Assembly (NCBI GenBank): GCA_965231005.1
Contig: OZ246405.1
Location: forward strand, 231,204 to 295,203
DNA: 64,000 bases
Origin: an uncultured Gammaproteobacteria bacterium
Lineage (GTDB): Bacteria; Patescibacteriota; Patescibacteriia; Magasanikbacterales; UBA922
Direction: 5' to 3'
Within the stretch, counting starts at the first letter, position 1. Every line of letters starts with the position of its first letter. The notes under the pieces were generated by a model, which ran no database searches, was not told the DNA's origin, and saw only the letters and a list, made by a program, of their open reading frames with translations. The position numbers were made by a program, and so were the translations under genes. Below are positions 1 through 27,965 of the stretch, one piece after another.

Positions 1-454
1 TTTGCATTATAAAATGCTTTCTGACTTCCCTCTACTTTACAATGCGTTCCTTGTTTTTGCGCATCTCCTGTTGTGAGTCGCACTGCAAACCGTGTAATAC
101 TGTATGCACTTAGGATAATAAGCAGCCCAATGGCTGAATTAACTATTACTGACTTTCCATGAGCAATTTTCTCTTCATTTCCACCAGAAAGCAAAATCAA
201 ATATCCACCATATACCATATATATTAGAACAAGTGTCCCGAGCAAACCTAGTGCTGCTTTAATAATATTTGCAACAATAAGGCGTGGGTCATTTGGCTTT
301 CCAAGATCTGCTCCATCTGAACCAGCAAAGGCTGCATTCTGCTTTTTCAAATCATCTTTGAAGTCTGCAGATACATATTCTGGCTGTGCAAAGGAGAAAA
401 AAAGTAAACTAACAACAAAAAGACTTGCTGTTAAAAATATTATTGATGTCTTTT
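1..454 (-). CDS. TrbC/VirB2-like T4SS pilin family protein (paralog 1), C-terminal part runs off the window edge
   Basis: My own minus-strand translation from ATG at 454 gives MILKKTSIIFLTASLFVVSLLFFSFA...IYMVYGGYLILLSGGNEEKIAHGKS.... It has a signal peptide plus the family core motif YGGY-x-W/L-x-T/S-x-GG-NEE followed by a second hydrophobic helix. It is absent from the ORF track because it is open at the window edge. Confidence 0.7.
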
Positions 455-460
455 TTAAAA

Positions 461-898
461 TCATAGATCAAGAGGTATTGCCTGATAAGAATTTTCATTG
501 ATTTCGTATGCCTTGTCTGACGAAACAGTATTCTGAATCCGTTTTGCAACAAATGTTGTAATAGCATAGGAACTTAAGATAATTCCAAGCCCTATTACTG
601 CCCCTGTCATTGTTTTCTTTGCTTTCAAAATTTGATCTTGTTCACCATCTGCAGTAATAAGCCAATATCCTGCGAGCACAATAAGCCCAGTTACCATCAT
701 TCCTACAAGACCAAGGGCTATCTGGATAATTTCTGCAACAATGAGTTGAGGCGGTTTTGGGTTTTCAACTTCAAAACCTGCTTTTCCACCTCCTGCTTTT
801 AGCTGTCCACCCACATCGGCCCGAAGATCGCGCTGTGCACTTGCTGGCTGAAATATGAGCAAGCATGCGAACAATGAAACAATGAGAATCTTTTTCAT
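461..898 (-). CDS. TrbC/VirB2-like T4SS pilin family protein (paralog 2)
   Basis: ORF track 461..976 trimmed to the internal ATG at 898 (MKKILIVSLFACLL...), which abuts the stop of the next gene at 900. It has a signal peptide, the core LIVLAGYWLITADGEQDQILKAKK and a second TM helix. Confidence 0.75.
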   Translation of the reverse strand: MKKILIVSLFACLLIFQPASAQRDLRADVGGQLKAGGGKAGFEVENPKPPQLIVAEIIQIALGLVGMMVTGLIVLAGYWLITADGEQDQILKAKKTMTGAVIGLGIILSSYAITTFVAKRIQNTVSSDKAYEINENSYQAIPLDL

Positions 899-899
899 A

Positions 900-1295
900 T
901 TATTTAATTTGAGAAGCAGGCGCTGTTGTCTTTTCAATAACTTTTCCAACAACAAAATTACTAATTGCATATGCACTAAGTGTCACAACAAGCCCGATAA
1001 GTGAACCAGTAATAATTTTCTTTGCTTGATCAATCTGATCGGCTTCACCACGAGCAGTCATCCAAAGATAGCCTGCGTACACCATAAGTGCTGTAAAAAT
1101 AACACCAATAAGTGAAAGTGCTGAACTTACTACTGTACCAATGGTCTCTGCAAAGGTTGTTTCACTTGCTTCTTTAAATCCAGCTTCTTTTCCTGCTTTA
1201 TGTACATCGTCAATACCAAGATTTACTGCCCCAACAGATGCAAATGGTGCAAAAGCTAGTAGTGCCAATGAAAACATGAATAATATCTTCTTCAT
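900..1295 (-). CDS. TrbC/VirB2-like T4SS pilin family protein (paralog 3)
   Basis: 131 aa with a signal peptide. The core LMVYAGYLWMTARGEADQIDQAKK is followed by a hydrophobic helix. This is the conserved pilin motif seen in all array members. Confidence 0.8.
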   Translation of the reverse strand: MKKILFMFSLALLAFAPFASVGAVNLGIDDVHKAGKEAGFKEASETTFAETIGTVVSSALSLIGVIFTALMVYAGYLWMTARGEADQIDQAKKIITGSLIGLVVTLSAYAISNFVVGKVIEKTTAPASQIK

Positions 1296-1305
1296 ATAAT
1301 ACTAA

Positions 1306-1689
1306 TTAAAGATCTTTAAATCGAGAAGTAACAAAGGTGGTGATTGCGTATGCACTTACAACAATCACAATTCCAATTACTGCTGCAATAATAATTTGCT
1401 TTGCTTTGTCAATCTGATCTGCCTCTCCACGCGCTGTCATCCAGAGATATCCTGCATACACCATCAAAATAAGGAAAATAAGACCCACAAGTGTGAGAGC
1501 AGCATTTATGATTCCACCGATAATTGTTGGAAGATTTGTATTTGTGTTTGCGCCGGCCTTTTGACCGATTGCATTCAGATTTTGTCCTGCATTTTTCAAT
1601 CCTTGCGTTGAAGCAGCCTGCATTCCAAAAAGGAGGACAAACGAACAAAGTAGAACACTCATTATCTTTTGATATTTTTGTATAAACAT
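1306..1689 (-). CDS. TrbC/VirB2-like T4SS pilin family protein (paralog 4)
   Basis: 127 aa. The core LMVYAGYLWMTARGEADQIDKAKQ is near-identical to paralog 3. An alternative start is the MSVLL codon at 1662. Confidence 0.8.
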   Translation of the reverse strand: MFIQKYQKIMSVLLCSFVLLFGMQAASTQGLKNAGQNLNAIGQKAGANTNTNLPTIIGGIINAALTLVGLIFLILMVYAGYLWMTARGEADQIDKAKQIIIAAVIGIVIVVSAYAITTFVTSRFKDL

Positions 1690-1798
1690 AAAACGATTTT
1701 ACTATCATTAGTTAATAGTTACTAGCGAACTAGGCAAGATTGTTCTTACAAGATCTAATAACTATTAGCTAGTAGCTAATAACTAGTATATCACAGAC

Positions 1799-2413
1799 CT
1801 AACAACTACTGGTACACTGAACACCTACCACACCACCATCCCATTCAAACTCTGTAAATTGATCTCCTGAACTTGTCTTTTTTGCATCTGTTTCACAAGC
1901 AGAATATGTTTTAATACTACAACCCCAGACAGCGATTTCAGCCTGACCAAAAATTTGTGGTTTTCCAATTCTATCTCTGCAACAACCCAATGCCTCACCA
2001 CCCAACTGCTGTTGCTGTGTGGTTTGAGTAGCTTTTTCTTGATTGAGAACCCTACTTGTAATAAATGATGTAATGGTAAATCCACTCACAACAATTGCAA
2101 GACCAATGATCGATCCAATAATCGTATCTCGTGCTTTTGTAACATTTTCATCATTTCCTCTTGCTGTCATCCAACGAAATCCTGCATATACCATGAGAAT
2201 GAGAAACGCAAGACCAACAATTGAAAACGCTGTTTGAATCACTCGTGCAACAACCTCTGGTACTTCTATATCTGTTTCAGAGCCTGCCTTTTTTGCTACA
2301 ATATTTAAATTCCCTTCACTAGAATTGAATGTTTGTCGAGCTAAAACATTTCCTGCTGGCGCTAGCATAAGGAGCATAAAGAAAAAAATTGTTCCCTTAC
2401 GTAACCACGTCAT
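1799..2413 (-). CDS. T4SS pilin family protein with C-terminal Cys-containing extension (paralog 5)
   Basis: 204 aa with a signal peptide and the core MVYAGFRWMTARGNDENVTKARD. It has a C-terminal tail of about 70 aa with 7 Cys. Confidence 0.75.
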   Translation of the reverse strand: MTWLRKGTIFFFMLLMLAPAGNVLARQTFNSSEGNLNIVAKKAGSETDIEVPEVVARVIQTAFSIVGLAFLILMVYAGFRWMTARGNDENVTKARDTIIGSIIGLAIVVSGFTITSFITSRVLNQEKATQTTQQQQLGGEALGCCRDRIGKPQIFGQAEIAVWGCSIKTYSACETDAKKTSSGDQFTEFEWDGGVVGVQCTSSC

Positions 2414-2416
2414 AGA

Positions 2417-2905
2417 CTACTTATTAGCATTACATTCTTCTAAGGAATTGAACAAATTCCCCACGCAAGATCCTTTTGGATCAAACTTTGTACACTGGCC
2501 ATTGGCTGCACAATACTGAACATCTTCTGGCGTTGCTTGTTGAGGACCAAGACGTTTGAAGACGAATGTTGTAATGGTGTATGCAGCAACCACAATGATA
2601 ATCCCAACAATTGCTGCAATAATAGTATCTTGCGCTGTTCGAATTTCATCTTCATTCCCTCTTGCAACCATCCACCTGAACCCTGCATAAAGAATATGAA
2701 CAAAAAAGATAATTGAAATTAAACCAAGTGCTGTCCCAATAATGTTCCCAATAATTCCAAGAACATTTTCTTGTTTTTCTCCTGCTTTATATAATCCTGC
2801 ACGCCCGGCAGTTTCTTCTAGGCCAAGTTGTGCATGAGCTGTTGGAGCAAATACAAAAAATATAAATGTGAAGGAAAGAAGTATTGTGAATATTTTTTTC
2901 TTCAT
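2417..2905 (-). CDS. T4SS pilin family protein with C-terminal Cys-rich tail (paralog 6)
   Basis: ORF track 2417..2926; the start is placed at ATG 2905 (MKKKIFTILLSF..) to avoid overlap with the upstream stop. The core is ILYAGFRWMVARGNEDEIRTAQD and the tail is QYCAANGQCTKFDPKGSCVGNLFNSLEECNANK. Confidence 0.7.
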   Translation of the reverse strand: MKKKIFTILLSFTFIFFVFAPTAHAQLGLEETAGRAGLYKAGEKQENVLGIIGNIIGTALGLISIIFFVHILYAGFRWMVARGNEDEIRTAQDTIIAAIVGIIIVVAAYTITTFVFKRLGPQQATPEDVQYCAANGQCTKFDPKGSCVGNLFNSLEECNANK

Positions 2906-2916
2906 ACAGAATTTTT

Positions 2917-3855
2917 TTAGTCGCAAACCCTTGCACTACAATTTCCATCACTTTTGCAAAAAGTATTCTTAGGGCAATGTGAATCAACTTTACAACTACT
3001 CTGAACACACAGACCAGACAAACAATTCGAATTTGACTTACATATTTCACCTTTTTTCAGCAGTTTTGGAGTACAAACACCCGAAATACAAATATTACTT
3101 TGACAATCTACATTTTCTTTACAGAATTTGCCACCAGGAAGTGGTGTACACAATCCTGATGAACAATTATTACTTTTACAATGATAGTTCAAACCACAAG
3201 CTTTTCCACCATCGAGTTGACCACCAACACACACACCTTTTACACATGCATTTCCTGCACATTCAGCTTTAACAGTACACTTCTTTCCTGCAGGAAGTGG
3301 CGCACAAAAACCAGATACACATCCACCGAGTTTACATTCATCAGTACTTGTACACGCTGCTCCACCCAAGAGCGTTCCACCTGAAGAACTTCCTTGGTCC
3401 TGTGTTGGAGAACCACCAACTGTTTTTTCTGGTTGATAATTTCCACTAATGCTTTGGAACAAGAATTGTGTTATTGCGTAGGCAGACAGAATAACAATGA
3501 TTCCTGCAACTGCGCCAAAAATAGTTTTCTTTCCATCTTCAACTTGTTCTTCGTCTCCTCGCGCTGTCATAACCATAAATCCACCATACAGCATAAGCGC
3601 AAAGAACAGTACTGAGACAAGTGAGAGAACACTTCCAAGAACATTTCCAACGAGCTGTGGAATATTATCGTTCTGTCCTTTTTCTTGATAGATTCCTGCC
3701 TCACCAGCAACTGCTTTTAGTCCATAACTTTTTATTGGAGCAAGTTCTTGCGCAGAAACAGTGGAAAACAAACCAAACATCATCACTAGTAATGCCGTCA
3801 TTATAATTGTTACTCTGAATATTTTCATACCAGTATACAAAAATTGAGGTTTCAT
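2917..3855 (-). CDS. T4SS pilin family protein fused to a repetitive cysteine-rich module domain (paralog 7)
   Basis: 312 aa with a signal peptide and the core LMLYGGFMVMTARGDEEQVEDGKK. The C-terminus of about 170 aa has at least 5 repeats of C-x5-C-x4-C-x4-C, for example CKSNNCSSGLCTPLPGGKFC. Confidence 0.8.
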   Translation of the reverse strand: MKPQFLYTGMKIFRVTIIMTALLVMMFGLFSTVSAQELAPIKSYGLKAVAGEAGIYQEKGQNDNIPQLVGNVLGSVLSLVSVLFFALMLYGGFMVMTARGDEEQVEDGKKTIFGAVAGIIVILSAYAITQFLFQSISGNYQPEKTVGGSPTQDQGSSSGGTLLGGAACTSTDECKLGGCVSGFCAPLPAGKKCTVKAECAGNACVKGVCVGGQLDGGKACGLNYHCKSNNCSSGLCTPLPGGKFCKENVDCQSNICISGVCTPKLLKKGEICKSNSNCLSGLCVQSSCKVDSHCPKNTFCKSDGNCSARVCD

Positions 3856-3940
3856 TAACTAAGAAGTTGGAAACTAGAAATTAGAAATTGGGGCTTTTTC
3901 AAAGATATCTTATATTGGTTCCCTAATTTCAAATTTCTAA

Positions 3941-4561
3941 TTATTGTATTAAGTTCTTACCCTTAATATCCCCTTCACAAATTCCTTTTGAAAAACCAGA
4001 TCCACCATCTGCACACTTTTTACCTTCTGCTAGCTCCTCACATGAATAGAGCACACCTTTTTTTACAATACAATATTTCTTAGCAGCGATCGGATCAACA
4101 TTTCCTTGGGCAGCTCCCTTTGGCTCATTCAATTCTCCTTTTACTGCTTTGAAAATAAGTTGGGTAAGCGCGTATGCGGAAATAACAATCACAAGACCAA
4201 GAATTGCGCCTAAAATTGTTTTCAATGCTTTTGTTGACTTTTCTTCGTTCCCTCTTGCTGTCATCCACATAAACCCACCATACAGCATAAGCAAAAAGAA
4301 AATAACAGACGTAAACGTAAGAGCAGCACCAATCAAATCTCCTGCTCTTGCTGCAAGTGTTGGATTTCCACCTTTTTCATTGTACAAACCAGCTTCCCCA
4401 CCTGTTTCCTCGAGTCCAAATGCTGCAGACGCTGGAGAAACAAACCCAACAAAAACAAACGCAATAATAAAACACAGCAGTATTGCACTGACATGTCCCA
4501 ATACTGCTTTATGCCATCGCTTACTGCTGTCAGATTGACTGTGTTTTATATATTCACGCAT
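3941..4561 (-). CDS. T4SS pilin family protein with C-terminal Cys-containing extension (paralog 8)
   Basis: The ORF track starts at a TTG (4594); the first ATG is at 4561 (MREYIKHSQ...). The core is LMLYGGFMWMTARGNEEKSTKALK. The C-terminal tail has several Cys (CIVKKGVLYSCEELAEGKKCADGG...). Confidence 0.7.
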   Translation of the reverse strand: MREYIKHSQSDSSKRWHKAVLGHVSAILLCFIIAFVFVGFVSPASAAFGLEETGGEAGLYNEKGGNPTLAARAGDLIGAALTFTSVIFFLLMLYGGFMWMTARGNEEKSTKALKTILGAILGLVIVISAYALTQLIFKAVKGELNEPKGAAQGNVDPIAAKKYCIVKKGVLYSCEELAEGKKCADGGSGFSKGICEGDIKGKNLIQ

Positions 4562-4597
4562 ATGCTTCCACTTGCATGAGAAAATCAATATCAAACC

Positions 4598-5005
4598 TTA
4601 TGGATTTTGCTGCTGACCTGTTTGATAATTTTGTCCTGTTGTAGCTTGGTAAAGGTTTTTAACAACAAAGTTAGTAATTGCGTATGCACTCAAGACAATT
4701 GCAAGTCCAATAACTGCAGCACTAAGGCGCTTCTTTGCAGAAGATACTTGGTCTTCGTTTCCACCTGCTGTCATCCATTCAAATCCAGCCCAGATTATGA
4801 TAACAACCGTCAAAATTCCAAGCAAACTAAGCGCAACACGAATAATATTTGCTACTTGTAGACGAACGTCTGTATTCCCAAGTCCAGTTGCTGACCCATA
4901 ATTCAACCCAAGAATATCATTTGATGTAGCAAGAGCATCTGGCACGAGTGCAAATAGCCCAAGAGCAAATACACCTACCATGCCCAAAGCAAGATACTTT
5001 TTCAT
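4598..5005 (-). CDS. TrbC/VirB2-like T4SS pilin family protein (paralog 9)
   Basis: Start trimmed to ATG 5005 (MKKYLALGMVGVFALG..). The core is IIIWAGFEWMTAGGNEDQVSSAKK followed by a hydrophobic helix. Confidence 0.75.
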   Translation of the reverse strand: MKKYLALGMVGVFALGLFALVPDALATSNDILGLNYGSATGLGNTDVRLQVANIIRVALSLLGILTVVIIIWAGFEWMTAGGNEDQVSSAKKRLSAAVIGLAIVLSAYAITNFVVKNLYQATTGQNYQTGQQQNP

Positions 5006-5119
5006 ATATATAGAAATTATGTTTATGTGTGCATACAAGAAATAGTGTATGCGCGCGTAAACACAATTGAAGAGAAAGCGTAGAGGGGAAGCCCCCCTCT
5101 ACACAATCTTTTACTTTTA

Positions 5120-5650
5120 CTATTTGAGAATATCAGCTGCGTCACCAGAGCCAGTAGCTGTAGACAATTCTCGGAGTACAAACGTTGCAATTGCCCATGC
5201 GGACATGATAATTGCCAATCCAATAATACCTTGGATAATACGTTTTCTCGCTTCTGTAACTTTTTCTTCATTACCACCAGCGGTCATCCATTGGAAACCA
5301 CCAATCAAGATGATAACAACAGAAACAATACCAAGTAAACTCAAAGCAACATTGATAATCTTTGCTGCTGTTGTCCGTAAATCTGTTCTACCAAGTGATG
5401 TTTTAAGACCTGTATCAACGGTTTTGATTCCAAACACATCTTCACTAGATGACTTAGAACTATCGTTTTGTGTAAGAACACACTTACTCGCTGAATTACA
5501 TGTGTAACCTTTGTCACAAGGATTCTTTGAATCACACTTGTCAGGATTTGTCGCACTAGCTATTCCTGGGGCAAACATGAGTACCATGGCTGCGGTTGCA
5601 ATAACTGCGAAAATCGTTTTGAATCGTGCAAGTTTTACGACTGCGTACAT
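5120..5650 (-). CDS. T4SS pilin family protein with N-terminal Cys-rich insert (paralog 10)
   Basis: 176 aa with a signal peptide, then PDKCDSKNPCDKGYTCNSASKC, then the core VIILIGGFQWMTAGGNEEKVTEARK. Confidence 0.75.
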   Translation of the reverse strand: MYAVVKLARFKTIFAVIATAAMVLMFAPGIASATNPDKCDSKNPCDKGYTCNSASKCVLTQNDSSKSSSEDVFGIKTVDTGLKTSLGRTDLRTTAAKIINVALSLLGIVSVVIILIGGFQWMTAGGNEEKVTEARKRIIQGIIGLAIIMSAWAIATFVLRELSTATGSGDAADILK

Positions 5651-5779
5651 ATGCTCACCCCCTTTCGTTGTAAGATATATTTACTCATAAAGAAATAAAT
5701 AGCCTAAAAGGCCAGAAGGAAAGAAAAACGAACATTTCCCTTTCCTTTTCTACCTTTTAGAAAAAAATAAGTAAAATAA

Positions 5780-6166
5780 CTACGCTCCAGCCTGGAGACC
5801 AAGTCCTGAAATAACTGTACTCAGTATAGCATAGCTTCCAAAAATAATGAACAATCCAAGTACTGCCCACATCATGATTGTTTTTCCTTTTGCAACTCTA
5901 TCTGCATTACCACCACTTGTCATCCACAAAAATCCACCATAGACAAATACCACAAGTGTGAGTGATCCAATTAATGCCAGTCCGGCTTTCACTATTCCTC
6001 CAATAATAGCTGCCATATTTGTCTGCCCTTCTGGATTCTCAACTGTTCCACCTATAGGATTCACAAGAGGAACTATTCCTTTTTGCTTTGCAACTTGTGC
6101 AAATGCCGGAGCAGCACTACTAAATAATATTAGTATACTAATTGCTATTATTGTTTTCTTCATCAT
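5780..6166 (-). CDS. TrbC/VirB2-like T4SS pilin family protein (paralog 11)
   Basis: 128 aa with the start MMKKTIIAISILILF (signal peptide). The core is VVFVYGGFLWMTSGGNADRVAKGKT. Confidence 0.8.
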   Translation of the reverse strand: MMKKTIIAISILILFSSAAPAFAQVAKQKGIVPLVNPIGGTVENPEGQTNMAAIIGGIVKAGLALIGSLTLVVFVYGGFLWMTSGGNADRVAKGKTIMMWAVLGLFIIFGSYAILSTVISGLGLQAGA

Positions 6167-6225
6167 ATATCTTCTTAAAAGAGCCTTTTAAGCCTTTACA
6201 GCTTTTAAGGCATTTATGGCTTTTT

Positions 6226-7353
6226 CTACTTTGTTTGTTCTAACGTTCCAACAGCTCTAAATGCATCGCTGACTTGAAGAGCATCAAGAACAAAATCAAC
6301 TACAAGATATGCACTAAATAAAATAATCATACCAAGAATTGCTGCAACAAGAGTCTGTTTCCCCTGCGTAATTCTTTCTTCCATTCCAAAGGATGTCACC
6401 CATAAAAATCCACCGTAGACAAAAAATCCAAAGGCAATCACACCAACAATCCCAAAGAATGAACGACCAAACCGAATGAACAACTCTATAATATCATTTA
6501 TATCATCACATGTCCCTTCAAATGCACATGGTGGGAGAATCTGACTTGGATATTCTGCCTCACTTGGTGCTTTATACTTACTTTTTAAATACGCTTCTAT
6601 ATTTTCATCTTGAATTTCTTTCAGTTCTTCGCTGGTTAATGCACTCTTCAATTTGCACGACTCAGAACTTGTCACATATGCACAATGACTATGCTTTATA
6701 CAGTTATTTCTATCTTTATTTAATTTTGTACAATCAAATTTAGCTTTTACCTGTTCTTCAAAACCAACAAAATAAATAGCAAGTTGTTCCTTAACAAATC
6801 TAAAACGGATTCTCTTTTTGACATTTACTGTTTTAGACGGGCCTGTTGTTTTTACCTGACATGTTGAATCCTCTTTCTGTGAGAGGGTATAGACAAAATC
6901 ACTAGCAGTCGATTTTGGACCATCTTGTGCCCAAGAGACAAATCCCTCTTTGGAGCCGCAGGCAGACAGTTCTCTATATACATCATGGGACTTCCAAGGG
7001 GCACCAACAGTTGCTGGAGTACCTTTTGCCAAATCATCAAAATTAATACCTTTTACACCCTCATTTACTTCGATACAAAATTCCTTACCCGTTGTTGGAT
7101 CAAGATTTTCATCATAATTCTTGTATACATGAAGTTTGTTCCCTATCTTAGGCTCTTTTGCTGTATCTGCCACAAAGACTGCAAATAGCTTTCCCTTTGG
7201 TGTTTCTTTTAATCCGAATTGCTTTACACAATTTATTTTTGCTTCATATGCTGCTACAGGCTGGACAAATAAAAAAGGAAGAAAAAGAAGTGCAGCAAAA
7301 AATACTACCTTCCAAAGTGATACTTGTTGTAATTTTTGTACGTTCAACATCAT
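6226..7353 (-). CDS. T4SS pilin family protein with large N-terminal Cys-containing extracellular domain (paralog 12)
   Basis: 375 aa with a signal peptide. An N-terminal domain of about 280 aa has about 10 Cys. The C-terminal pilin core is FFVYGGFLWVTSFGMEERITQGKQ with a TM helix. Confidence 0.7.
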   Translation of the reverse strand: MMLNVQKLQQVSLWKVVFFAALLFLPFLFVQPVAAYEAKINCVKQFGLKETPKGKLFAVFVADTAKEPKIGNKLHVYKNYDENLDPTTGKEFCIEVNEGVKGINFDDLAKGTPATVGAPWKSHDVYRELSACGSKEGFVSWAQDGPKSTASDFVYTLSQKEDSTCQVKTTGPSKTVNVKKRIRFRFVKEQLAIYFVGFEEQVKAKFDCTKLNKDRNNCIKHSHCAYVTSSESCKLKSALTSEELKEIQDENIEAYLKSKYKAPSEAEYPSQILPPCAFEGTCDDINDIIELFIRFGRSFFGIVGVIAFGFFVYGGFLWVTSFGMEERITQGKQTLVAAILGMIILFSAYLVVDFVLDALQVSDAFRAVGTLEQTK

Positions 7354-7356
7354 ATT

Positions 7357-8736
7357 TTAGAATGTTTGTTGAATAGTTATTGCAGCATTTTTGATAATAG
7401 CAATATCACGCTTCAATGGATTTTCCCCATCAGCATAAGACTGTAAGAACTGATCAATCATAAGTTTCATCGCGTCATTTGTTGTATCAATATCGTTTCC
7501 TCTATACCAATTTTCTGCTGTTAATACACCAGTCACAAATGGTCCTAAGATATCGTCCTTTGCCTGATCTGTAATTTGGGATCGAAGTGGTGTAAGACGT
7601 CCTGTTGCCTCGGTATATTCAGCGATTTTTTCTGGTGTAGTAATAAACCGAACAAAATCCCATGCAATATTCTGATTTGCAGATTTTCCTACAACAGATT
7701 CTACCCAATAGTTTGCAACATTTTTTGGTTCTCCAGGGTTCAGCTGTGGCATTGGCAATACACCCAAACTCATCTGTGGTGCACGAGAAGTAATTCTCTC
7801 AGCGTCAAATGCAAATCCAATGTAAAATGCAGAACGACCTGCTGTAAATGATTCAAGTGCGTCTCCTTGTGAAGCATTCCAGCTATATGCTTCTTTTGTA
7901 GGTCGAGCAAAATCAGTATAAAAACGAAGCGCCTCTCGTGTAGGATGTGCTCCTGGATTTTCTTCTATTCCATTTGCAAATGTGACACTCCCTTTGTGTG
8001 TAACAGGAACATTGTTCTGCATCAATAGCAGTGCCATAATATCTGGTGAATTTGTAATATTATTTCCTGTACCTAAGGCTATTCCTGATTGGATAATATT
8101 TCCATTTGCATCAAACCGTGTTGTTGCACGAACGGCTTCTAACAATTCTGCCCATGTTGTTGGAGGAACAGCAATACCTGCACTATCTAATAAATCTTTA
8201 TTGTAATAAACGGCTAATGTATCTACAGAAAGTGGAAGACCCAAAATATTATTTGAAAAAATCACATCTTCTCCAACTGTTTTTACAAAAGCAGAAGAAA
8301 CAATGTTTGGTGTTGGCATTGCATTGACCTCGTTTGTTACAACAACCTCTTTTGCATATTCACCTTTAATTGACACATTTGAAACCTGCACACTTCCAGG
8401 CATTGAAGACAGCCGTGGTGCGTATTTATTGAGCCAACGAACGTGAAGTGAAACAATATCTGGTGGTACATCATCTGCAAGGGAATTTACTAACAATGTA
8501 TCAAACTCATCATACCGAACCTGACGAATATTGATCGTTACATACGGCTTTAACTGTTTATACTGTTCAGCAAATGTCCGCAAAACACTCACATCATTAA
8601 ATACTGTCCAGTATTCAATATTTACTGGTTTGATAGATGCTTGTTGGTCGTCTGAAAGACCTTTACAACCTAAACCTGTTGTTATTAACAACAGAAAGAG
8701 TAAAGGAAATAAAAATATTTTTTTATTCATAATCAT
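7357..8736 (-). CDS. ABC-transporter-type extracellular solute-binding lipoprotein (family 1, sugar-type)
   Basis: 459 aa with a lipobox LITTGLGC. The pattern LAVYYNKDLL...PTTWAELLEAV is typical of SBP_bac_1 substrate-binding proteins. It is embedded in the pilin array with a 3-nt spacing to both neighbours. Confidence 0.7.
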   Translation of the reverse strand: MIMNKKIFLFPLLFLLLITTGLGCKGLSDDQQASIKPVNIEYWTVFNDVSVLRTFAEQYKQLKPYVTINIRQVRYDEFDTLLVNSLADDVPPDIVSLHVRWLNKYAPRLSSMPGSVQVSNVSIKGEYAKEVVVTNEVNAMPTPNIVSSAFVKTVGEDVIFSNNILGLPLSVDTLAVYYNKDLLDSAGIAVPPTTWAELLEAVRATTRFDANGNIIQSGIALGTGNNITNSPDIMALLLMQNNVPVTHKGSVTFANGIEENPGAHPTREALRFYTDFARPTKEAYSWNASQGDALESFTAGRSAFYIGFAFDAERITSRAPQMSLGVLPMPQLNPGEPKNVANYWVESVVGKSANQNIAWDFVRFITTPEKIAEYTEATGRLTPLRSQITDQAKDDILGPFVTGVLTAENWYRGNDIDTTNDAMKLMIDQFLQSYADGENPLKRDIAIIKNAAITIQQTF

Positions 8737-8739
8737 AAT

Positions 8740-10224
8740 TTAGGGTATTTGTGAAACGCACGAACCCACTTTCTCCGTTGTCTTGCCATCACTAGATTTC
8801 TTCTTTTCACAGATATGATCTGAAGCACAGCTAATATCTGTCTGGCATTTTACTCCCTCTTTTCCGTTCGTACACTTATTATCTACAGGATTACAAATAT
8901 TACTTTTACATTCACTTCCCACGCTACAAGATTCCCCATCTTTCTTCTTAGTTGCTTTCTTCTTAGTTCCAATTTTCTCACATGTGCCTGGCTTATCTCC
9001 AGGACCTACGTTTGACTTAGAACATATTAATCCTTTTGCACAACCGCTATTATACAAGCAAACAGTTCCTTCCTTTCCATCTGTACACACTCCTTCTTCA
9101 AGAAGACTCTTAAGACTACATATTCCTGTATCACAGTCTTTTCCAGTACTACATTGTTGTACTTTACCAGATGAATCAACACACTTATTGTTCTTACATT
9201 CACCCGATTCACACTGTGTGGACTTCGTACAAGAACTGCCAATTTTTCTTTTGACTGTGTCAGTACTCGCTTGATTGGTTGCAGCAGGTTCAAACGATTC
9301 AAATGGATCAAAGACTAGGTCAACAATTGCATAACTTGAGAAAATAACAAACATTCCAGCCACTGCCCAGGTAATAACATCTTTTGCTTTGCTAATATCT
9401 TGTTTTGTTGCACCACCACCAACAACTGTTGAACCCATCATGAGAAGAAAACCACCATAAATAAACATGGCAAATGCAATGGTTCCAAGAAGACCCATTG
9501 CTGTTTTAATGATTCTTCCAATGAGTTTTTGTACGGTTGTACCAGGAGTAAATTGGTTTAAATCTTTTAATAACTTTGCCTGATCAGCAGTAAGTAAATC
9601 ACTGTGCTGATACTTCTTTGCATCTTTTTCAATAGCATCAACAGCCTTTTTTACCTCTCCTGCAGCTCCCAAAGCTGCTTTTTTTGCCTTCTCATATGCC
9701 TCAGTTTGGGACTTTTTTAGTTTTTCCAAACCTTCTTTACAAAGTGGATCATGCGATTGAGTTTTTTTTGATGTATAACCAGTACTAGTATATGATGGAC
9801 ATGTCCCTGGATTGTTATCAATCGCACTCTGCAGATTACCCCCCTTGTAATATAAACAACAGACAAAAGCATCCTTAACTGCACAGGTCAGTTCGTGCGT
9901 ATGATCCAAGTATGAAACTGTTTTTTTATAACCTGAGCATTCTTTTTGTTTAACTTCCACAGGAAGATCTGAATTTAAGTACGCCTTGGAAAAGGCATAA
10001 CCTTTCTTTTTGGGAGGACATTCTTTATTAACAGAATCAGAAAAATCAATCAAATCTAAATTTTTGGGTAAATCCTTCCATGCTTGTAAACCTGATACAT
10101 TACATTCTTTTCCTTTAATAGTAAGAATACACTCACACACTGATGCCGCACTAACAGGAGGGACAAAAAACACACCCATCAATAGTATTGAGAGAACTAA
10201 TCCTATTCTGAAGAAATACTTCAT
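8740..10224 (-). CDS. Large T4SS pilin family protein with N- and C-terminal Cys-rich domains (paralog 13)
   Basis: 494 aa with a signal peptide. The central pilin core is FAMFIYGGFLLMMGSTVVGGGATKQDISKAKD plus a TM helix. The C-terminal ~170 aa has the same C-x-S-x2-C-x-SG-x-C modules as paralog 7 (CTKSTQCESGECKNNKC...). Confidence 0.7.
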   Translation of the reverse strand: MKYFFRIGLVLSILLMGVFFVPPVSAASVCECILTIKGKECNVSGLQAWKDLPKNLDLIDFSDSVNKECPPKKKGYAFSKAYLNSDLPVEVKQKECSGYKKTVSYLDHTHELTCAVKDAFVCCLYYKGGNLQSAIDNNPGTCPSYTSTGYTSKKTQSHDPLCKEGLEKLKKSQTEAYEKAKKAALGAAGEVKKAVDAIEKDAKKYQHSDLLTADQAKLLKDLNQFTPGTTVQKLIGRIIKTAMGLLGTIAFAMFIYGGFLLMMGSTVVGGGATKQDISKAKDVITWAVAGMFVIFSSYAIVDLVFDPFESFEPAATNQASTDTVKRKIGSSCTKSTQCESGECKNNKCVDSSGKVQQCSTGKDCDTGICSLKSLLEEGVCTDGKEGTVCLYNSGCAKGLICSKSNVGPGDKPGTCEKIGTKKKATKKKDGESCSVGSECKSNICNPVDNKCTNGKEGVKCQTDISCASDHICEKKKSSDGKTTEKVGSCVSQIP

Positions 10225-15836: not shown

Positions 15837-16034
15837 AAAAGGTTTATTTTGTCACCATCCCCCTCTGCTCGGATCGACCTCCGAACGATAGTGTTTGTAC
15901 TGATATCTATTTGTAATAAGCTCGAGTACTATAGCATATTATATTTTTTTGTCAAGATTCACACCTAAAATTAGCCATTATTAAACAAAAGTGAAAATAG
16001 CATAAAAAAGCTACAAATGCTTTAAAAGCAAAAA

Positions 16035-16125
16035 AGGCTATAAAGGCTCTTTTCAAAGCCATCAAAATTTATAAAGCCTTTATGGCCTTTGGAGCCTTTA
16101 AGGCTTTTATGGCCTTTTTACATTG
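16035..16125. promoter_or_regulatory. Array of 10-bp phased CCTTTA (GCCTTTA-W-GGC) repeats, putative curved-DNA / upstream regulatory element
   Basis: Read as aaggctataaaggctcttttcaaagcc...aaagcctttatggcctttggagcctttaaggcttttatggcc. The T-tract recurs every 10-11 bp. Similar arrays are at 6181-6223, 11715-11760, 17789-17835, 17949-17988 and 38975-39015. Confidence 0.5.
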
Positions 16126-16205
16126 ACTTTTAAGAAAAAAAATGATTATATTAGAGCGCCTTAGAGCAAGGAATCATCCTTGGTTCTGAACAAAGGGAGA
16201 CGACA

Positions 16206-21313: not shown

Positions 21314-24300
21314 TTATTGTGGTGGTTTAGGACCATTGTTTCCTCCCGGACCCGGACCTCCTGGTGGAGGACCTCCTCCTGAAGGTGGGCCTGAGATTTG
21401 CGGTGGTGGAGGCGTGAAATTGCCACTAGATTGTGGTGGCTTGTCACCGCCTGAAGGTGGCTTTGGCGGCTGACGATCTCCTCCTGAAAATGAAGGTGGT
21501 TTTGGTTGTGAAGGTTGTGGAGCAGGTCTTACATTATCTGGACGTTCGTTCGGAACAAACTTTGGCGGCTGTGGAAGATCCTGCGGTCTGTCAGGCTTAG
21601 AAATATTCGGCCGAGGCTGTGACCGTTCATTTTTCTTGAATTCCTCTTTCCGCTTGTCACGTGGATCGACCGAAGGGAAATCTTTACGTGATTCCTCATG
21701 TTTAAATTCTTCACGACGCTCTTCTCTCTTAAAATCTGGTTTTCGCTCCTCACGAAAATCATCCTTTTTATCATCAAAACGAACCTTCCGTTCTTCTTTG
21801 ATTTCAATTCTTCCATCTTTTTCACGGACTTCTTTTTTGAATTCCTCTTTTTTTACATCACGTGGATTAAATGACGGACGATCCTTTCGTGAATCTTCGA
21901 GATGTTCACGAATAAATCGAGTGTCTGGTTTTGGAGGGGATGGAATAATATTTTTTGGATGTTCGTCATTGAAATGCTCAAATTCTTCTTTCCGCTCTTC
22001 TCGCTTTTCTTCATTAAATTTGCGAATTTTATTTATATCATCTCCATTTGGTGGACGAAAGTCACCACGGACAGGTGCAATTCTGTTTACATCATCACTA
22101 TCAAACTTTGGTGGACCTAAATCACGATCAAAAACTTTTTTAAAGAATCCTCTATCACCGTTTGGTTCAGGTCGATCATGATCAAATGTTGGTCTTTCAA
22201 AGTTGCCATCTCTTTCTCCTGGAAATGGAGGACGACCTCTATCAAAATCTTCATCACCATCATGGTCATCACCAAATTCTTCTCTCATTTTTCTTTCAAA
22301 CTCTTCCCGTTCTTTTTCAAGATCTTCACGATGTCTTCTATCTGAAAATTCATCTAATTCTCTACTTAGTTCAAAGAACACATCGACTTCATGTTCATTT
22401 CTTCTATCAAATTCTAATTTTTGTTGGAAACGTTTTGATTCTTCATTTCTACAACGCTCGTCACAGAAAGGATTATTGTTTAAGAGATCTCCAAAAATCT
22501 GTTGACGTTTTTTATGTGTTCGTTCTTGGAACTCAGAACGTCGATTGTTTAACTCTTGTTTTAACCCTTCAACATCTTCTCCTGCTTCAATCGCTGCATC
22601 AATTTTATTTTTAATTTCTTCTTCAAGTCGTTGCCGTTCTTGTTCATTGTCACGACGAAACTGCTCACCAAAGTCATCTTGTTGGCGGAAGAAATTTATT
22701 TTTGAATTAAATGCTTGACCAACATTTCCCTGACGTCTTTCTAATTCACGAAGTGCTCCATCATCAAGACCTTCAAACTTCTTTTGAAAATGAGCAAAAA
22801 TTTCAGGGTCATCGATCTCTCTTATATTTTCAAAAACATGTTCTGATTGCTTTTTAATAGCTTGATCAAAAAATCGTTCAAATCCTGGAGGTGGCCCATG
22901 TCCAAACGGTGGAGGACCAAATCCGTCAGGACCAATTCCTGGAGGACCGTCTTCAAATGGGTGTGGTCCAAAGAATTCATCTGGATTTTCTGCAAAATCA
23001 AATTGCAATTTTTTAAATATTTCAATGTCTTCTGGATTGTTAGAAGCAATTTCATCAAAAAACTTTTCTCCTTGTTCACGTGCTTTTGCAGCAAACTGCT
23101 GTTTTGCTTCTTTTTCCATTCGTTCAATAAACTCACGCTTGGAAGGATCTGACAAGACTTTTTCTTCTAATTGTTGTAAAAGTCTAAATGTTGTTGGATC
23201 TGGATTTTCTGCCATCTTTTTTGAAAGACGACGAAATTCTTCTGCATCTTCATTTGCATCTGGGAATGCTGCTTTAAATTTATCAATGGATGCTTCATGT
23301 TGCTTTTCCATTTCTGCTTGTAATTCTGTGTCATCAAATTGTACACGATTACGCATTTCCTCCATGACACGAACTTTAATCACATCCCCATCATTTTCAC
23401 GAATATGATCGAACGCTCGTTGTTGCATTCGCTTTCGGAACCCTTGATCAAATCCATCTTCTTCAAATGATTCAAACTTATTTTGAAAACGGCGAGCTGC
23501 AATATCTTTTGCTTGTTCTAATTTTTCACGAATATCATCTGGAACATCATCGAACTGTTTTAATCGATCAAAAATTTCCATGTGACGTGTTTCGTCTCCC
23601 TCCATATTATGAGCGTATTTTTCAAATCGCTCTGCACGCTCTCTTGGACTCATTCGTTCTGCTGAATGTGCAAATCGCTTAAATGCATTGTCTTGTGCTC
23701 GTCGAATTGCTTCACGCGCTTGTTGTGGAACCGCATCTTCAAGTCTTGTAAGCACTTCGACATTTCTCATTTCTTTAAAGTCACTTCCTGGCTGTCTTTG
23801 AAGCACACGATCCATACGTGCAACAAGTGCGTTTTCATCATCAACTTTTGAAATAAGCTCTCCAACATGTCCTGCAGCTCGTTTTTTTACTTCTTGAATT
23901 TTTTCTAATGCTTGCCCTGCTTCACTTTTTGAAGCAAATTTAAGAATTCTTTTTTCAACATGAGCAAGAACCTTTTGTTGTTTGATTTGTTTATCTAAAA
24001 CATCATCTAATAATTTGTCAGCTCCTTGGTCACCACCTTGTCTTTTTTCTTGAATTTTTTTAGCTGCTCTATTAATATCTTTTAGTTTTCCTTCAAACTT
24101 TTCAAATGCTTTTGCTGCGGCACGAGCTGCACCAGGATCATCTGCATGTTCCTCAATAAGTTCACGTGCGTCTGCAAGTTCTTGGGTTGCATGTTTTAAT
24201 TTTAATTCTGCTTTTTTTACTGAGTCAAAAGTAAAGGCCTCTTTAAATCCACGTTGCAAACGCTTTAAAGAATAAAAAGGACTGTCCGGTAAGACAGTCG

Positions 24301-24607
24301 ATTCCTCTGCGCCTAAATCTTCGTCACTTACTGCTTCATCTGCATCTACATCTGCTGATGTTGCTTCTTCAACAGATGCTTGTGCTCCAGTAGAAGGAGT
24401 TGCTGAAGAATTTGTTTCGTCTGCAGAAGCCTCAGATGTTGTTTCTGAAGTTTGTGCAGAAGAATCATCAGATTGTGCAAGAGCTGGAACAGACAACAAA
24501 AAAACAGCAGTAAAAATGCTGATTATTATTAATAAGTATGCTTTCTTGTTAAAGAGACCAAATAAAATACGTGACTTTGCGCTCAAAGGCGGAGTTGCAG
24601 ATTGCAT
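21314..24607 (-). CDS. Very large (1098 aa) low-complexity, highly charged secreted/anchored protein with Pro/Gly-rich C-terminus
   Basis: The start is at ATG 24607 (MQSATPPLSAKSRILFGLFNKKAYLLIIISIFTAVFLLSVPALA). Long E/K/R/D/F-rich repetitive segments (KEEFKKEVREKDGRIEIKEERKVRFDDKKDDFREERK...) are followed by a PPxGG-rich tail. Confidence 0.65.
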   Translation of the reverse strand: MQSATPPLSAKSRILFGLFNKKAYLLIIISIFTAVFLLSVPALAQSDDSSAQTSETTSEASADETNSSATPSTGAQASVEEATSADVDADEAVSDEDLGAEESTVLPDSPFYSLKRLQRGFKEAFTFDSVKKAELKLKHATQELADARELIEEHADDPGAARAAAKAFEKFEGKLKDINRAAKKIQEKRQGGDQGADKLLDDVLDKQIKQQKVLAHVEKRILKFASKSEAGQALEKIQEVKKRAAGHVGELISKVDDENALVARMDRVLQRQPGSDFKEMRNVEVLTRLEDAVPQQAREAIRRAQDNAFKRFAHSAERMSPRERAERFEKYAHNMEGDETRHMEIFDRLKQFDDVPDDIREKLEQAKDIAARRFQNKFESFEEDGFDQGFRKRMQQRAFDHIRENDGDVIKVRVMEEMRNRVQFDDTELQAEMEKQHEASIDKFKAAFPDANEDAEEFRRLSKKMAENPDPTTFRLLQQLEEKVLSDPSKREFIERMEKEAKQQFAAKAREQGEKFFDEIASNNPEDIEIFKKLQFDFAENPDEFFGPHPFEDGPPGIGPDGFGPPPFGHGPPPGFERFFDQAIKKQSEHVFENIREIDDPEIFAHFQKKFEGLDDGALRELERRQGNVGQAFNSKINFFRQQDDFGEQFRRDNEQERQRLEEEIKNKIDAAIEAGEDVEGLKQELNNRRSEFQERTHKKRQQIFGDLLNNNPFCDERCRNEESKRFQQKLEFDRRNEHEVDVFFELSRELDEFSDRRHREDLEKEREEFERKMREEFGDDHDGDEDFDRGRPPFPGERDGNFERPTFDHDRPEPNGDRGFFKKVFDRDLGPPKFDSDDVNRIAPVRGDFRPPNGDDINKIRKFNEEKREERKEEFEHFNDEHPKNIIPSPPKPDTRFIREHLEDSRKDRPSFNPRDVKKEEFKKEVREKDGRIEIKEERKVRFDDKKDDFREERKPDFKREERREEFKHEESRKDFPSVDPRDKRKEEFKKNERSQPRPNISKPDRPQDLPQPPKFVPNERPDNVRPAPQPSQPKPPSFSGGDRQPPKPPSGGDKPPQSSGNFTPPPPQISGPPSGGGPPPGGPGPGGNNGPKPPQ

Positions 24608-24848
24608 ATGTTTATTTTTATGTTTATTTTTTCTCACCGATGCGAGATTTTCAGTATATTTTGTACTTAAAAACCTTTTTTTGACACGGTGAGTACTTGT
24701 ATTATAGCACATTTTTGGGTGTTTGTCAAGCCCTCTGGCTACAAATTGTATACACTAGTGTAGACAAATATTCGTTTTAGGAACAAACCTTGATTTATCA
24801 CGGCCTACATGATAATGTCCAAGCACAAAACCAACAAGGGGGTTTAGC

Positions 24849-26307: not shown

Positions 26308-26451
26308 ATGAATGCAATACTTTACAGTATGATATCACAAAAGTCAATTTGACATTCAATTATCAGTGTAGTAATCTATGTATAACAATTCAAAAGTATC
26401 AAGAAGGACAGAGGGAAATGGCCCGTTGACGTCCTACCAACCTAGTGCACA

Positions 26452-26560
26452 GTTTGACAACCTCGACTCACTGCGATAAGGTGGTACATCCATCCCAGCA
26501 AGGGAACGATACGCTCTAAAAGAGAAAAAAATCTTCTTGCTGCTTGCAAGTTTTTTTGAT
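26452..26560 (+). ncRNA. candidate small RNA transcription unit (promoter to terminator, no ORF)
   Basis: TTGACA-N17-TAAGGT at 26452-26480 is followed by about 80 nt with no ATG-initiated ORF. This is followed by the hairpin cttgctgcttgcaag and a T7 run at 26536-26558. Confidence 0.3.
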
Positions 26561-26642: not shown

Positions 26643-27965
26643 ATGCCACATGTTTTCCTTGGAAATTTTGACCAATTCTTCGATGGTCCGCCAACTCGAA
26701 AAGACGCTCACAAGATCTTTCGTCTTGGAGACAGAATCACGCACAATACTGTCGAAGTAGCAGGGTTTGACCCTGACTCAGTCGGCATTCTTCCTTCGCA
26801 GCCAAGCCGAGAGTACCTCAGCTACCTCCAGCACCAGCTCTACCGCTGTGGGAGCAGCCTGCCAAGATTTGTCGCACCAACCACTGTTGATCCAAATCGA
26901 CTGTGTCTGGCAAAGGCGCTTCTTGAAGACAAAGCACTCATGAGGGAGCTGAAGAGGAAAAAAGGCTGGGTCGTTCATGGCCTGATTTCTTCTCCTGACC
27001 TGACAGAAGTCGCAGAAGCCCTCGGCGGAACGGTTGCACCGATGACAGACCGTGCTATGCGAGCAGGAATCGCCATGCGCATCCGCAGCAAGGGCTGGTT
27101 CAAGGCAATCTGCAGTCGAAAGGACATCAACATCAGGACTCCAGAAGGCGTGTGTGTTGATTCGATTGGAAACGCTGCACATGTTTGCCTTAATCGGCTT
27201 GAGCGTGACATCGATCTGATGCTCAGAATCGACATCTCTGCTGGTGGCCTGGGCAACCTCGAGTTTCTTCGAAGTCTCTTCGATGGCGAGCTCTCATTCA
27301 GAACGGTTCTCGCAACGCTTCAGCACAAAAGCCCAGAGTCTTGGGCTGGCAAGCTCATTCATGTCGAAACCAATCACGAGACTGTTCACGACCTGGCAAG
27401 CGTCTACTACGTCGATGACGAAGGACCCAAATTCCAGTGCCTGGTCGACCGAAAGGTCAAAAAGGGTGAGTCTGGAGGAGCAATCTGGCCCTCGACCTGC
27501 CCTGAGCCGCAAGCACAGGAAATCCGACAGGCGTCTGATCGGTTCATGCAACTTCTCTGGAACATTGGATACCGTGGCTGGGCAGACATTGACTGGGCGA
27601 TTCTCAAAGATGGAAGCATCATGGCCTTTGAGTGCAATGCGCGCTGGCTGGCCACGAACGCTCTCCTGTCCATGCTGAATCGACACGAACTCAATATGAG
27701 CCAGCTTGCTGGGGAAAGCATCGACTACCTGAAACTGCCGCACCATGTTGACCAAGCACAATTTTCTGCCTTCATGCTGCGAGGAAACCAACCTACAAAC
27801 AGGCGAATGTGGACTCAGGCAGAAATCATGATTCCAGCTCAGAACGGTTCAGCGTCTCTGGTCATTCTTGGCCAGGATGCAGACAGCATCGATCTGAGAA
27901 AGCGACAGATCTACTCATGGTGTAGGGAAGGCTCAAGCCCAAAAAAGCCGCGTGCAGCACTCTAG
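26643..27965 (+). CDS. ATP-grasp-like ligase family protein A (high-GC islet)
   Basis: 440 aa. The C-terminal IGYRGWADIDWAILKDGSIMAFECNARW carries the ATP-grasp E-x-N-x-R metal-binding motif. The SD aagggggt lies 6 nt upstream. It is a paralog of the 35514..36854 gene. Confidence 0.6.
   Translation: MPHVFLGNFDQFFDGPPTRKDAHKIFRLGDRITHNTVEVAGFDPDSVGILPSQPSREYLSYLQHQLYRCGSSLPRFVAPTTVDPNRLCLAKALLEDKALMRELKRKKGWVVHGLISSPDLTEVAEALGGTVAPMTDRAMRAGIAMRIRSKGWFKAICSRKDINIRTPEGVCVDSIGNAAHVCLNRLERDIDLMLRIDISAGGLGNLEFLRSLFDGELSFRTVLATLQHKSPESWAGKLIHVETNHETVHDLASVYYVDDEGPKFQCLVDRKVKKGESGGAIWPSTCPEPQAQEIRQASDRFMQLLWNIGYRGWADIDWAILKDGSIMAFECNARWLATNALLSMLNRHELNMSQLAGESIDYLKLPHHVDQAQFSAFMLRGNQPTNRRMWTQAEIMIPAQNGSASLVILGQDADSIDLRKRQIYSWCREGSSPKKPRAAL

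Follow-up and report, generated by a model that had tools for sequence, protein, structure and literature searches.

The stretch of DNA analysed here (hereafter, the window) comprises 64,000 nucleotides of contig OZ246405.1 (positions 231,204 to 295,203, forward strand; assembly GCA_965231005.1), from an organism titled "uncultured Gammaproteobacteria bacterium" but placed by GTDB within the Patescibacteriota (Magasanikbacterales; UBA922). One end of the window is occupied by an array of 13 paralogous genes for VirB2-like pilins, accompanied by one gene for a solute-binding protein (SBP) of lipoprotein type (Table 1). Two members of this array are the main subject of the present work: (i) paralog 7 (W7), in which a pilin core of the kind known from type IV secretion systems (T4SSs) is followed by a tail of cysteine modules; and (ii) paralog 13 (W13), which ends in a second tail of such modules.

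Table 1. Features of the window discussed in the text (aa, amino acids; ORF, open reading frame; m, module)
Feature	Position	Strand	Remarks
Array of 13 VirB2-like pilin paralogs and one SBP lipoprotein gene	1..10224	minus	paralog 1 cut by the window edge
Paralog 7 (W7), VirB2-like pilin with cysteine-module tail	2917..3855	minus	ORF of 312 aa
Predicted signal peptide of paralog 7	3751..3855	minus	aa 1-35, ending in ...STVSA/QE; putative cleavage site
Pilin core of paralog 7	3451..3669	minus	two hydrophobic helices, aa 65-96 and 102-137; short loop TARGDEEQVEDGKK
Gly/Ser/Pro/Gln-rich linker of paralog 7	3355..3450	minus	aa 136-167, about 30 aa; predicted disordered
Six 4-Cys modules of paralog 7	2923..3354	minus	aa 168-311; m1 3304-3354, m2 3229-3279, m3 3148-3198, m4 3073-3123, m5 2992-3042, m6 2923-2976
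Paralog 13 (W13)	8740..10224	minus	494 aa; N-terminal 10-Cys domain, pilin core aa 229-303, module tail
Five modules of the paralog 13 tail	8758..9231	minus	aa 332-489; 9181-9231, 9085-9153, 8980-9060, 8872-8928, 8758-8847
Single module of paralog 10, CDSKNPCDKGYTCNSASKC	5480..5536	minus	mature N-terminus (gene 5120-5650), right after the signal peptide
SBP lipoprotein gene	7357..8736	minus	SBP_bac_1/8
Terminator-like hairpin after paralog 10	5078..5104	minus	12-bp stem, 7 GC pairs, T-rich run
Weaker terminator-like hairpin after paralog 11	5700..5714
1,132-aa protein	21314..24712	minus	DUF5667
High-GC islands	about 16000-18000, 26400-28000, 35500-39000		GC 0.45-0.54
SAM riboswitch	26393..26515	plus	Rfam, 50.5 bits
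440-aa ORF	26643..27965	plus	preceded by the riboswitch
IS1595-family transposase gene	28734..29648	plus
IS1595-family transposase gene	31945..32817	minus
Overlapping ORFs in a high-GC island	37274-38932 and 37322-38902	both

The pilin family PF18895 (T4SS_pilin; gathering cut-off, 26.6 bits) was recognized above its cut-off in 8/8 array proteins scanned, out of 12 complete paralogs: paralog 7 (aa 63-132, E 3.9e-8, 33.7 bits), paralog 13 (27.0 bits) and six others (30.6-50.5 bits). The array, whose 13 pilin genes are complete on contig L001, thus corresponds to a Patescibacterial VirB2 array as defined in the literature, i.e., at least two tandem divergent PF18895 genes with one intervening gene allowed (PMC12102498). 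Its site is chromosomal, some 47 kb away from dnaA. The syntenic gene order is NTP_transferase, a pilin with an N-terminal domain, the SBP lipoprotein, the other pilins and, on the opposite strand, MGDG synthase; the window shares this order with L005/L006 and L007, which have 13 and 10 pilins, respectively, and paralog 13 is the first gene of the conserved array, adjoining the NTP_transferase gene. Each paralog of the window has a single counterpart in L005 (10001-20366), in matching order and with 39-65% identity; the paralogs are therefore old and individually conserved. The SBP, which carries a lipobox-like GLGCKG motif, holds array position 2 in every syntenic locus examined, and up to 14-15 pilin ORFs were counted in related loci (L042, L077).

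The pilin part of paralog 7 has, as far as can be predicted, the three features by which VirB2/TrbC proteins are structurally defined: a signal peptide, two hydrophobic helices and a short polar loop. Its leader consists of a basic residue, a hydrophobic stretch and then V-S-A, and the signal region forms a helix (residues 5-37) in the AlphaFold2 (AF2) model. This model, computed with 32 aligned sequences, places the helical hairpin at aa 65-96/102-137 with a predicted local distance difference test score (pLDDT) of about 85-92; the linker falls below 50 at aa 140-160, and the modules beyond it are modelled at mixed confidence. Basic and acidic residues are found in the loop between the two helices, and all Cys lie past helix 2. 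Other families scored below their cut-offs, namely PF04956 (TrbC/VIRB2; 14.3 bits vs. 27.9) and NCBIfam NF045849 (Mbov_0395 pilin-like, from a Mycoplasma integrative conjugative element; 33.8 bits vs. 40), and no VirB5-type family was present among the Pfam matches. Foldseek with the full-length model against PDB returned generic helical hairpins, with an archaeal conjugation pilin at rank 36 (E 4.2). Judged by its family matches, the pilin part is of the VirB2 type of T4SS and not a type IV pilin, so that the preliminary description of this gene as a pilin fused to a repetitive 4-Cys domain holds and gains a pilin type. The identical protein was also called on metagenome contigs and on one NCBI contig of 1.23 Mb.

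Beyond helix 2, paralog 7 continues for 176 aa (32 aa of linker and 144 aa of modules), which corresponds to the C-terminal region of "~170 aa" first noticed. Its 24 Cys all fall within aa 168-311, the protein stops one residue past the last of them, and the tail is about 16% Cys. Successive Cys are separated by gaps of 5,4,4/8/5,4,4/10/5,4,4/8/5,4,4/10/5,4,4/5/5,5,4 residues; that is, five strict C-x5-C-x4-C-x4-C modules are followed by a sixth of the form C-x5-C-x5-C-x4-C. At least five had been claimed, and the example cited then, CGLNYHCKSNNCSSGLC, is module 3. When the tail was shuffled with its composition preserved, 0/200,000 shuffles reached six modules (maximum, three). Moreover, a di-module profile built from other organisms only gave 49.9 bits for the tail of paralog 7 and 49.8 bits for that of paralog 13, while the best of 2,000 shuffles reached -10.6 and -3.8 bits, respectively. 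As the profile was built outside the window, these scores place both tails in one module family and show the pattern to be non-compositional; the compositional artefact that had been named as the way in which the observation might fail is hence excluded.

The repeats of paralog 7 are old, as judged from their sequences. Their inter-module linkers pair up (APLPAGKK / TPLPGGKF) and the highest identities are those of m1-m3 (10/24), m2-m4 (7/25) and m3-m4 (10/25), with all remaining pairs at five or fewer, which suggests a two-module super-repeat (about 52 aa, 8 Cys) derived from an old duplication. Blastn of the tail on itself gave weak similarity only, at offsets of 75 and 156 nt (one and two modules). 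A recent tandem duplication of the modules was considered and rejected, since Tandem Repeats Finder detected no DNA-level array in the tail.

Cysteine-bearing extensions are not exclusive to paralog 7. They are also present on paralogs 5, 6, 8, 10, 12 and 13, and all Cys of the window paralogs outside the signal-peptide region are confined to N- or C-terminal extensions. In paralog 13, both peptides quoted earlier as evidence of the same module were located (aa 332-348 and 433-451), as parts of a set of five modules. These are looser than those of paralog 7, with a C-x5-C-x4/5-C start and a C3-C4 loop of 4 to 16 residues. Paralog 10 bears a single module, at which site its L007 ortholog has CKVSADCTAGNSCQSGKC and its L005 ortholog a different 4-Cys segment. 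Directly after paralog 10 there is a terminator-like hairpin, and a weaker one is found after paralog 11; the strong hairpin may mark paralog 10, the best-scoring plain pilin, as an abundantly expressed subunit.

The tails of paralogs 7 and 13 show little specific kinship: blastp between them gave E = 0.11, and their shared DNA matches do not exceed 18 nt. With E-values of 1e-16 to 1e-21, the tail of paralog 7 matches module arrays of a barnacle, of Nanoarchaeia and of a type IV pilin-like protein, and the closest relatives of the paralog 13 tail are other foreign arrays and the tail of its own ortholog. A direct exchange of tails between the two genes was, in consequence, rejected. Domain shuffling between pilin genes, as originally proposed, is therefore retained in part: the tails do look grafted, according to the comparison of orthologs described below, but an exchange between paralogs 7 and 13 finds no support.

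As for the module itself, an exhaustive phmmer search with the paralog 7 tail returned 337 proteins at E <= 1e-3 (69 at E <= 1e-10), highly diverse and 150-3,100 aa long; a word-indexed search with the tail alone returned nothing, which in view of these 337 proteins reflects its limited sensitivity. When 91 of the homologs were scanned with Pfam, DUF7107 was found in 39 (best match, E 1.4e-37), EB in 23 and Dickkopf_N in 11, whereas T4SS_pilin occurred in the query only and the N_methyl motif of type IV pilins in one. Named carriers include a barnacle protein, a Nanoarchaeia protein and a Sulfurimonas GspH-family protein. By these similarities, the module is a member of a widespread extracellular repeat that overlaps DUF7107, EB and Dickkopf_N. 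The paralog 13 tail had no Pfam match, DUF7107 included, and PF04706 (Dickkopf_N) matched neither paralog 7 nor paralog 13; P0152, an ortholog of paralog 7, is annotated with PF04706 and PF18895, the former being marked as faint.

Twenty di-modules of pilin-linked proteins align cleanly, with seven invariant Cys and the consensus G-x2-C-x5-C-x-S-G-x-C-x2-G-x-C; the Cys/Gly framework is the sole conserved part. The profile and structure searches that had been suggested for the repeat region were carried out. Against PDB, the di-module profile matched the first finger of the DKK1 C-terminal domain (CRD2) with E 1e-4 and, more weakly, DKK2, draxin, a Dumpy peptide and LEAP2. Coronavirus spike matches obtained in a single-sequence PDB search (E 0.01 or worse) were discarded as spurious, and the profile search was used instead. 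The AF2 model of a di-module (mean pLDDT, 91) shows in each module a turn and then a short beta-hairpin with C3 and C4. Foldseek superposed the module model, at non-significant E-values, on omega-atracotoxin-Hv1a, U3-scytotoxin, a conotoxin and procolipase (root-mean-square deviation 0.4-1.3 A over 24-26 residues); the best superpositions, on two- or three-disulfide toxins and procolipase, had 0.4-0.7 A over 24-25 residues and a probability of 0.87-0.93. The module is accordingly predicted to be a small beta-hairpin unit resembling the Dickkopf/colipase finger, and the early reading of the repeats as extracellular and of disulfide type agrees with a real module family. Two disulfides are probably formed per module, with a putative C1-C3 and C2-C4 pairing suggested by analogy with Dickkopf/colipase fingers.

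A comparison with orthologous arrays, also suggested at the outset to look for gain and loss of modules, was made possible by the SBP gene, since a scan of the genome collection with paralog 7 itself found no relatives. An alignment of SBPs, searched against one genome per species, gave 337 loci, and the best 80 (mostly Candidatus Magasanikbacteria, with some Falkowbacteria and unclassified Patescibacteria) were taken further. ORFs were called in 78 of these 80 loci (L005, L007-L087), in which 667 pilins were identified by hidden Markov model. A C-terminal tail of at least 40 aa is present in 149 of the 667 pilins; tails with at least 4 Cys also number 149, and 65 have at least 8 Cys. Among tails with at least two Cys, the count of Cys is even in 173 and odd in 4, which is strong, although indirect, evidence that the cysteines are completely paired in disulfides. 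Two or more strict modules occur in only five pilins. At the other end of the protein, N-terminal extensions with at least 4 Cys are found in all paralog-13-type proteins and in 73% of those of paralog-12 type.

Both window tails bear the mark of replacement or gain. Orthologs of paralog 13 stop 1-3 aa past the pilin core everywhere but in the window and in its nearest relative, L005/L008 (four modules); the tail of paralog 13 is therefore a lineage-specific gain. Tails of the paralog-7 type range from 1 to 498 aa, and 81% of them have at least 4 Cys. When the 35 paralog-7-type proteins with tails of at least 40 aa were compared pairwise, the cores aligned in 594/595 pairs and the tails in 5/595. 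The nearest relative of the paralog 7 core, P0151 (64% identity), has an unrelated tail with 18 Cys, and the ortholog of a sister species, P0170, likewise has an unrelated Cys-rich tail, while the more distant ortholog P0152 (L007) has seven modules. Gly/Pro-rich linkers like that of paralog 7 also precede the tails of the orthologs. Near-identical population variants of P0170 differ by four substitutions, too few to infer selection; all four affect the Cys-rich tail, the pilin core being unchanged, and one variant has a truncated C-terminus.

Further pilins with module tails are P0171, P0172, P0184 (three fn3 domains, pilin and modules) and others at L036 and L065. The module is found, too, on P0165 (L088, 8001-9590; also P0082), a type IV pilin-like N_methyl protein of the GspH family with six modules, encoded in a Sulfurimonas metagenome-assembled genome (MAG) within an MSHA-like operon that has a secretin, an MshE-type ATPase and a T2SSF platform protein. 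On the strength of these gene assignments, the module is independently deployed on an unrelated type IV pilus system.

The remainder of the window is ordinary chromosome, with dnaA, dnaN, polA, a class A penicillin-binding protein, trigger factor, S6 and SSB. Three islands stand out by their high GC content against about 0.37 elsewhere, and were probably acquired horizontally: one holds an aldehyde dehydrogenase, and the others long ORFs with no or sub-threshold Pfam matches, in one case overlapping on both strands. Two IS1595-family transposase genes lie between high-GC islands. The S-adenosylmethionine (SAM) riboswitch precedes a 440-aa ORF without a Pfam family apart from a weak Pre-ATP-grasp match (E 0.004); this ORF is not recognizable as a methionine or SAM gene. 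The 1,132-aa protein, whose sole Pfam match is DUF5667, may be another large surface protein. In addition, an SBP 40-64% identical to that of the window occurs together with a Patescibacteria-type array in many MAGs titled "uncultured Gammaproteobacteria bacterium" (L008, L009, L012 and L016, among others), titles which are evidently misassigned.

The reading that we favour, and to which we give about an even chance of being correct, is that paralog 7 is a VirB2-type carrier with a variable contact domain displayed at the surface. According to it, paralog 7 of this Candidatus Magasanikbacteria-like Patescibacterium would be a pilin-like membrane protein of the VirB2/TrbC type. Once the signal peptide is removed, the helical hairpin would hold its short, charged loop toward the cytoplasm (or the pilus lumen) and direct both termini outward. 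From there the C-terminus would run on, via some 30 aa of flexible linker, into six stiff, autonomous beta-hairpin mini-domains in a row, exposed either at the cell surface or on the exterior of a T4SS-type filament. The helix-loop-helix of conjugative pili of solved structure has its loop toward the lumen (PMC12037004); because it does, and because all Cys of paralog 7 lie past helix 2, outward termini and an extracytoplasmic tail are the likely topology. The pilin core would serve as a conserved carrier and the Cys-rich tail as exchangeable cargo. A tail that differs wholly between related genomes is what might be expected of the recognition or contact surface of an epibiotic bacterium. We infer a role in contact or recognition, rather than a purely structural one, because (i) the tails are hypervariable here; (ii) the relatives of the module are binding domains; and (iii) the module recurs on other pilus proteins.

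Several known systems resemble parts of this arrangement. With VirB2/TrbC/TraA and the Patescibacterial arrays (PF18895; PMC10633639, PMC12102498), paralog 7 and its neighbours share the signal peptide, the helical hairpin and the chromosomal tandem array of divergent paralogs. They depart from the published Patescibacterial arrays in having 13 paralogs instead of the 2-11 genes described (PMC12102498), in that virB4 does not adjoin them within the window, and in the Cys-rich ectodomains of several paralogs. Classical VirB2 pilins measure 70-120 aa, and their short termini are trimmed or cyclised in some cases. With Dickkopf and colipase (PF04706, PF23416, PF01683) the module shares the framework G-x2-C-x5-C-x-S-G-x-C-...-C and the predicted beta-hairpin finger, but those proteins have a 10-Cys domain instead of serial 4-Cys modules (8 Cys per 52-aa super-repeat), and the present case concerns a bacterial host and a pilin fusion, unconnected with Wnt or lipase biology. 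The best single-module superpositions of the model were on disulfide-directed beta-hairpin or inhibitor cystine knot toxins (omega-atracotoxin-Hv1a, U3-scytotoxin-Sth1a); however, these are free peptides, whereas here six units are predicted on a membrane protein, without the third, knotting disulfide. VirB5 tips, large type IV minor pilins and the VirB2 families of Bartonella and Anaplasma are likewise specialised or variable pilus components for target contact, and variation among paralogs has been suggested to broaden the interaction with hosts (PMC12102498). Unlike those adhesins, paralog 7 lacks VirB5 homology and varies in an appended domain, not in the pilin core; and, unlike recent duplicates, the paralogs here are ancient, stably inherited orthologs.

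A number of observations weigh against the favoured reading. VirB4, VirB6 and VirD4 were found neither among the larger window ORFs scanned with Pfam nor among the called flanking genes of the syntenic arrays; the genes scanned thus give no sign of the VirB4-containing T4SS which, under the functional definition of VirB2/TrbC, accompanies the pilin gene and builds the extracellular filament. No Patescibacterial VirB2-like protein is known to form a filament, and an appendage of 150 aa on every subunit might hinder packing. The family assignment of the module in paralog 7 itself is below threshold (DUF7107, PF23416: aa 192-237, E 0.0027, 18.4 bits vs. a cut-off of 24.6), and the Foldseek E-values of the module are >=0.3, hence non-significant, as units of 25 residues would give. 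Patescibacteria generally lack a respiratory chain, which leaves the oxidant of their disulfides unclear; no thioredoxin-like CxxC protein was present among the window ORFs, a result that speaks for the window only. Lastly, no data point to a binding partner of the paralog 7 tail.

The lack of T4SS machinery genes among the ORFs scanned near the array, in the window or at the syntenic loci, is also an argument for regarding paralog 7 as a membrane-anchored surface protein with no pilus involved: the hairpin would be a mere anchor, the array a coat or membrane complex, and the tail would project from the cell membrane through the wall. Other features fit this possibility, which we consider rather doubtful: monoderm T4SSs are normally without pili (PMC12102498, PMC12857230), the array retains a lipoprotein SBP gene, and each of the 13 paralogs is kept as a one-to-one ortholog, suggesting a fixed hetero-complex. 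Nevertheless, both the sequence and the predicted fold match a pilin family whose members build filaments in diderms and archaea, and such pilin genes do adjoin virB4 in many Patescibacteria (PMC12102498). In any case, this possibility differs from the favoured reading only in the site at which the tail is displayed.

It is unlikely that the tail is an inert stalk, spacer or protective bristle, that is, a rigid, protease-resistant disulfide rod devoid of a specific ligand. The repeats are simple and conserved only in their Cys/Gly framework, module number varies among orthologs (4, 5, 6 or 7), and Cys-rich repeat stalks are known from the myxobacterial receptor TraA (PMC3325183, PMC6626042). 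Myxococcus TraA offers a parallel, with tandem Cys-rich repeats that extend from the envelope, a function in cell-cell contact and a polymorphic recognition part; but its repeats belong to another family and bear a distal, variable PA14-like domain and a MYXO-CTERM anchor, whereas in paralog 7 the repeats themselves are distal and the pilin hairpin is the anchor. A stalk would thus have nothing distal to present. Furthermore, orthologs swap the repeats for unrelated Cys-rich domains, a change that goes beyond mere length, and the relatives of the module (Dickkopf, colipase, toxins) are established binding domains.

A more restricted form of adhesion, the tip adhesin first suggested as a candidate, in which paralog 7 is a minor pilin that caps a filament and its tail the adhesive tip, is very unlikely. 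It would agree with paralog 7 being among the long-tailed members of the 13-gene array and with the strong terminator-like hairpin after paralog 10, which hints at another paralog as the abundant subunit. Yet the known tip proteins of T4SSs are of VirB5 type and not VirB2 fusions (PMC12857230), six other paralogs likewise have Cys-containing extensions, and no result obtained here bears on position in a filament. Removal of the tail, either as a pro-region, as in TrbC/TrhA maturation, or as a released, soluble knottin-like factor (toxin, inhibitor or signal), is highly improbable. Some members of the pilin family are processed at the C-terminus (PMC12037004), the linker between core and tail is predicted to be disordered, the nearest folds are toxins and inhibitors, and polymorphic secreted proteins are similarly built, with a constant N-terminal carrier and C-terminal cargo that varies; against this, the array contains no TraF/TrhF-type peptidase or immunity-like gene, its neighbours being pilins, the known cleaved segments measure 5-31 aa vs. 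176 aa here, and the module is also N-terminal on paralog 10, where the same logic fails. Finally, the tail is about 16% Cys and the organisms are largely anaerobic, with no known oxidative folding pathway (general knowledge; PMC10633639), but that the modules are metal-binding Cys clusters instead of disulfide modules, or an artefact of composition (refuted as such by the shuffles), has a negligible probability in view of the homology to disulfide-bonded Dickkopf fingers, the x5/x4/x4 spacings (unlike CxxC metal knuckles), the parity of the Cys counts and the predicted extracytoplasmic location.

Within the favoured reading of a surface-displayed contact domain, a more specific proposal can be put forward tentatively. 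The paralog-7 position of the array might be a dedicated specificity slot, in which the pilin carrier receives swappable disulfide-rich cassettes, the Dickkopf-like modules of paralog 7 being one of them, from a pool shared with proteins of archaea, eukaryotes and type IV pili, and the cassette sets host attachment; it would then fix the choice of host as phage receptor-binding proteins do. This is a possibility to which we give some credence, well short of an even chance.

VirB2-like pilin arrays are widespread in Patescibacteria, where their role is unknown (PMC10633639, PMC11665869, PMC12857230), and they are essential in S. epibionticum, the sole species tested (PMC12102498, PMC10633639, PMC12857230). 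The papers on pilin arrays consulted here do not mention ectodomain extensions, and no description of Cys-rich ectodomains on Patescibacterial pilins was found in the openly searchable literature (subscription-only articles being outside this scope). At this locus, two known families, one of pilins and one of repeats, are thus combined in a fusion that is recurrent, so far undescribed and marked by a striking turnover of tails. Should the tails be inert decoration, the finding would amount to a routine domain fusion. The result also draws attention to the oxidation of dozens of extracellular cysteines in organisms from which a respiratory chain is reported to be absent. The disulfide-type, apparently outward-facing ectodomains of particular paralogs, together with the hypervariable array position and the presence of the module on a type IV pilin-like protein, lead to the testable idea that the arrays are a display scaffold for host contact. 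If the specificity-slot proposal were true, the enigmatic, essential pilin arrays of this group would gain their first functional handle.

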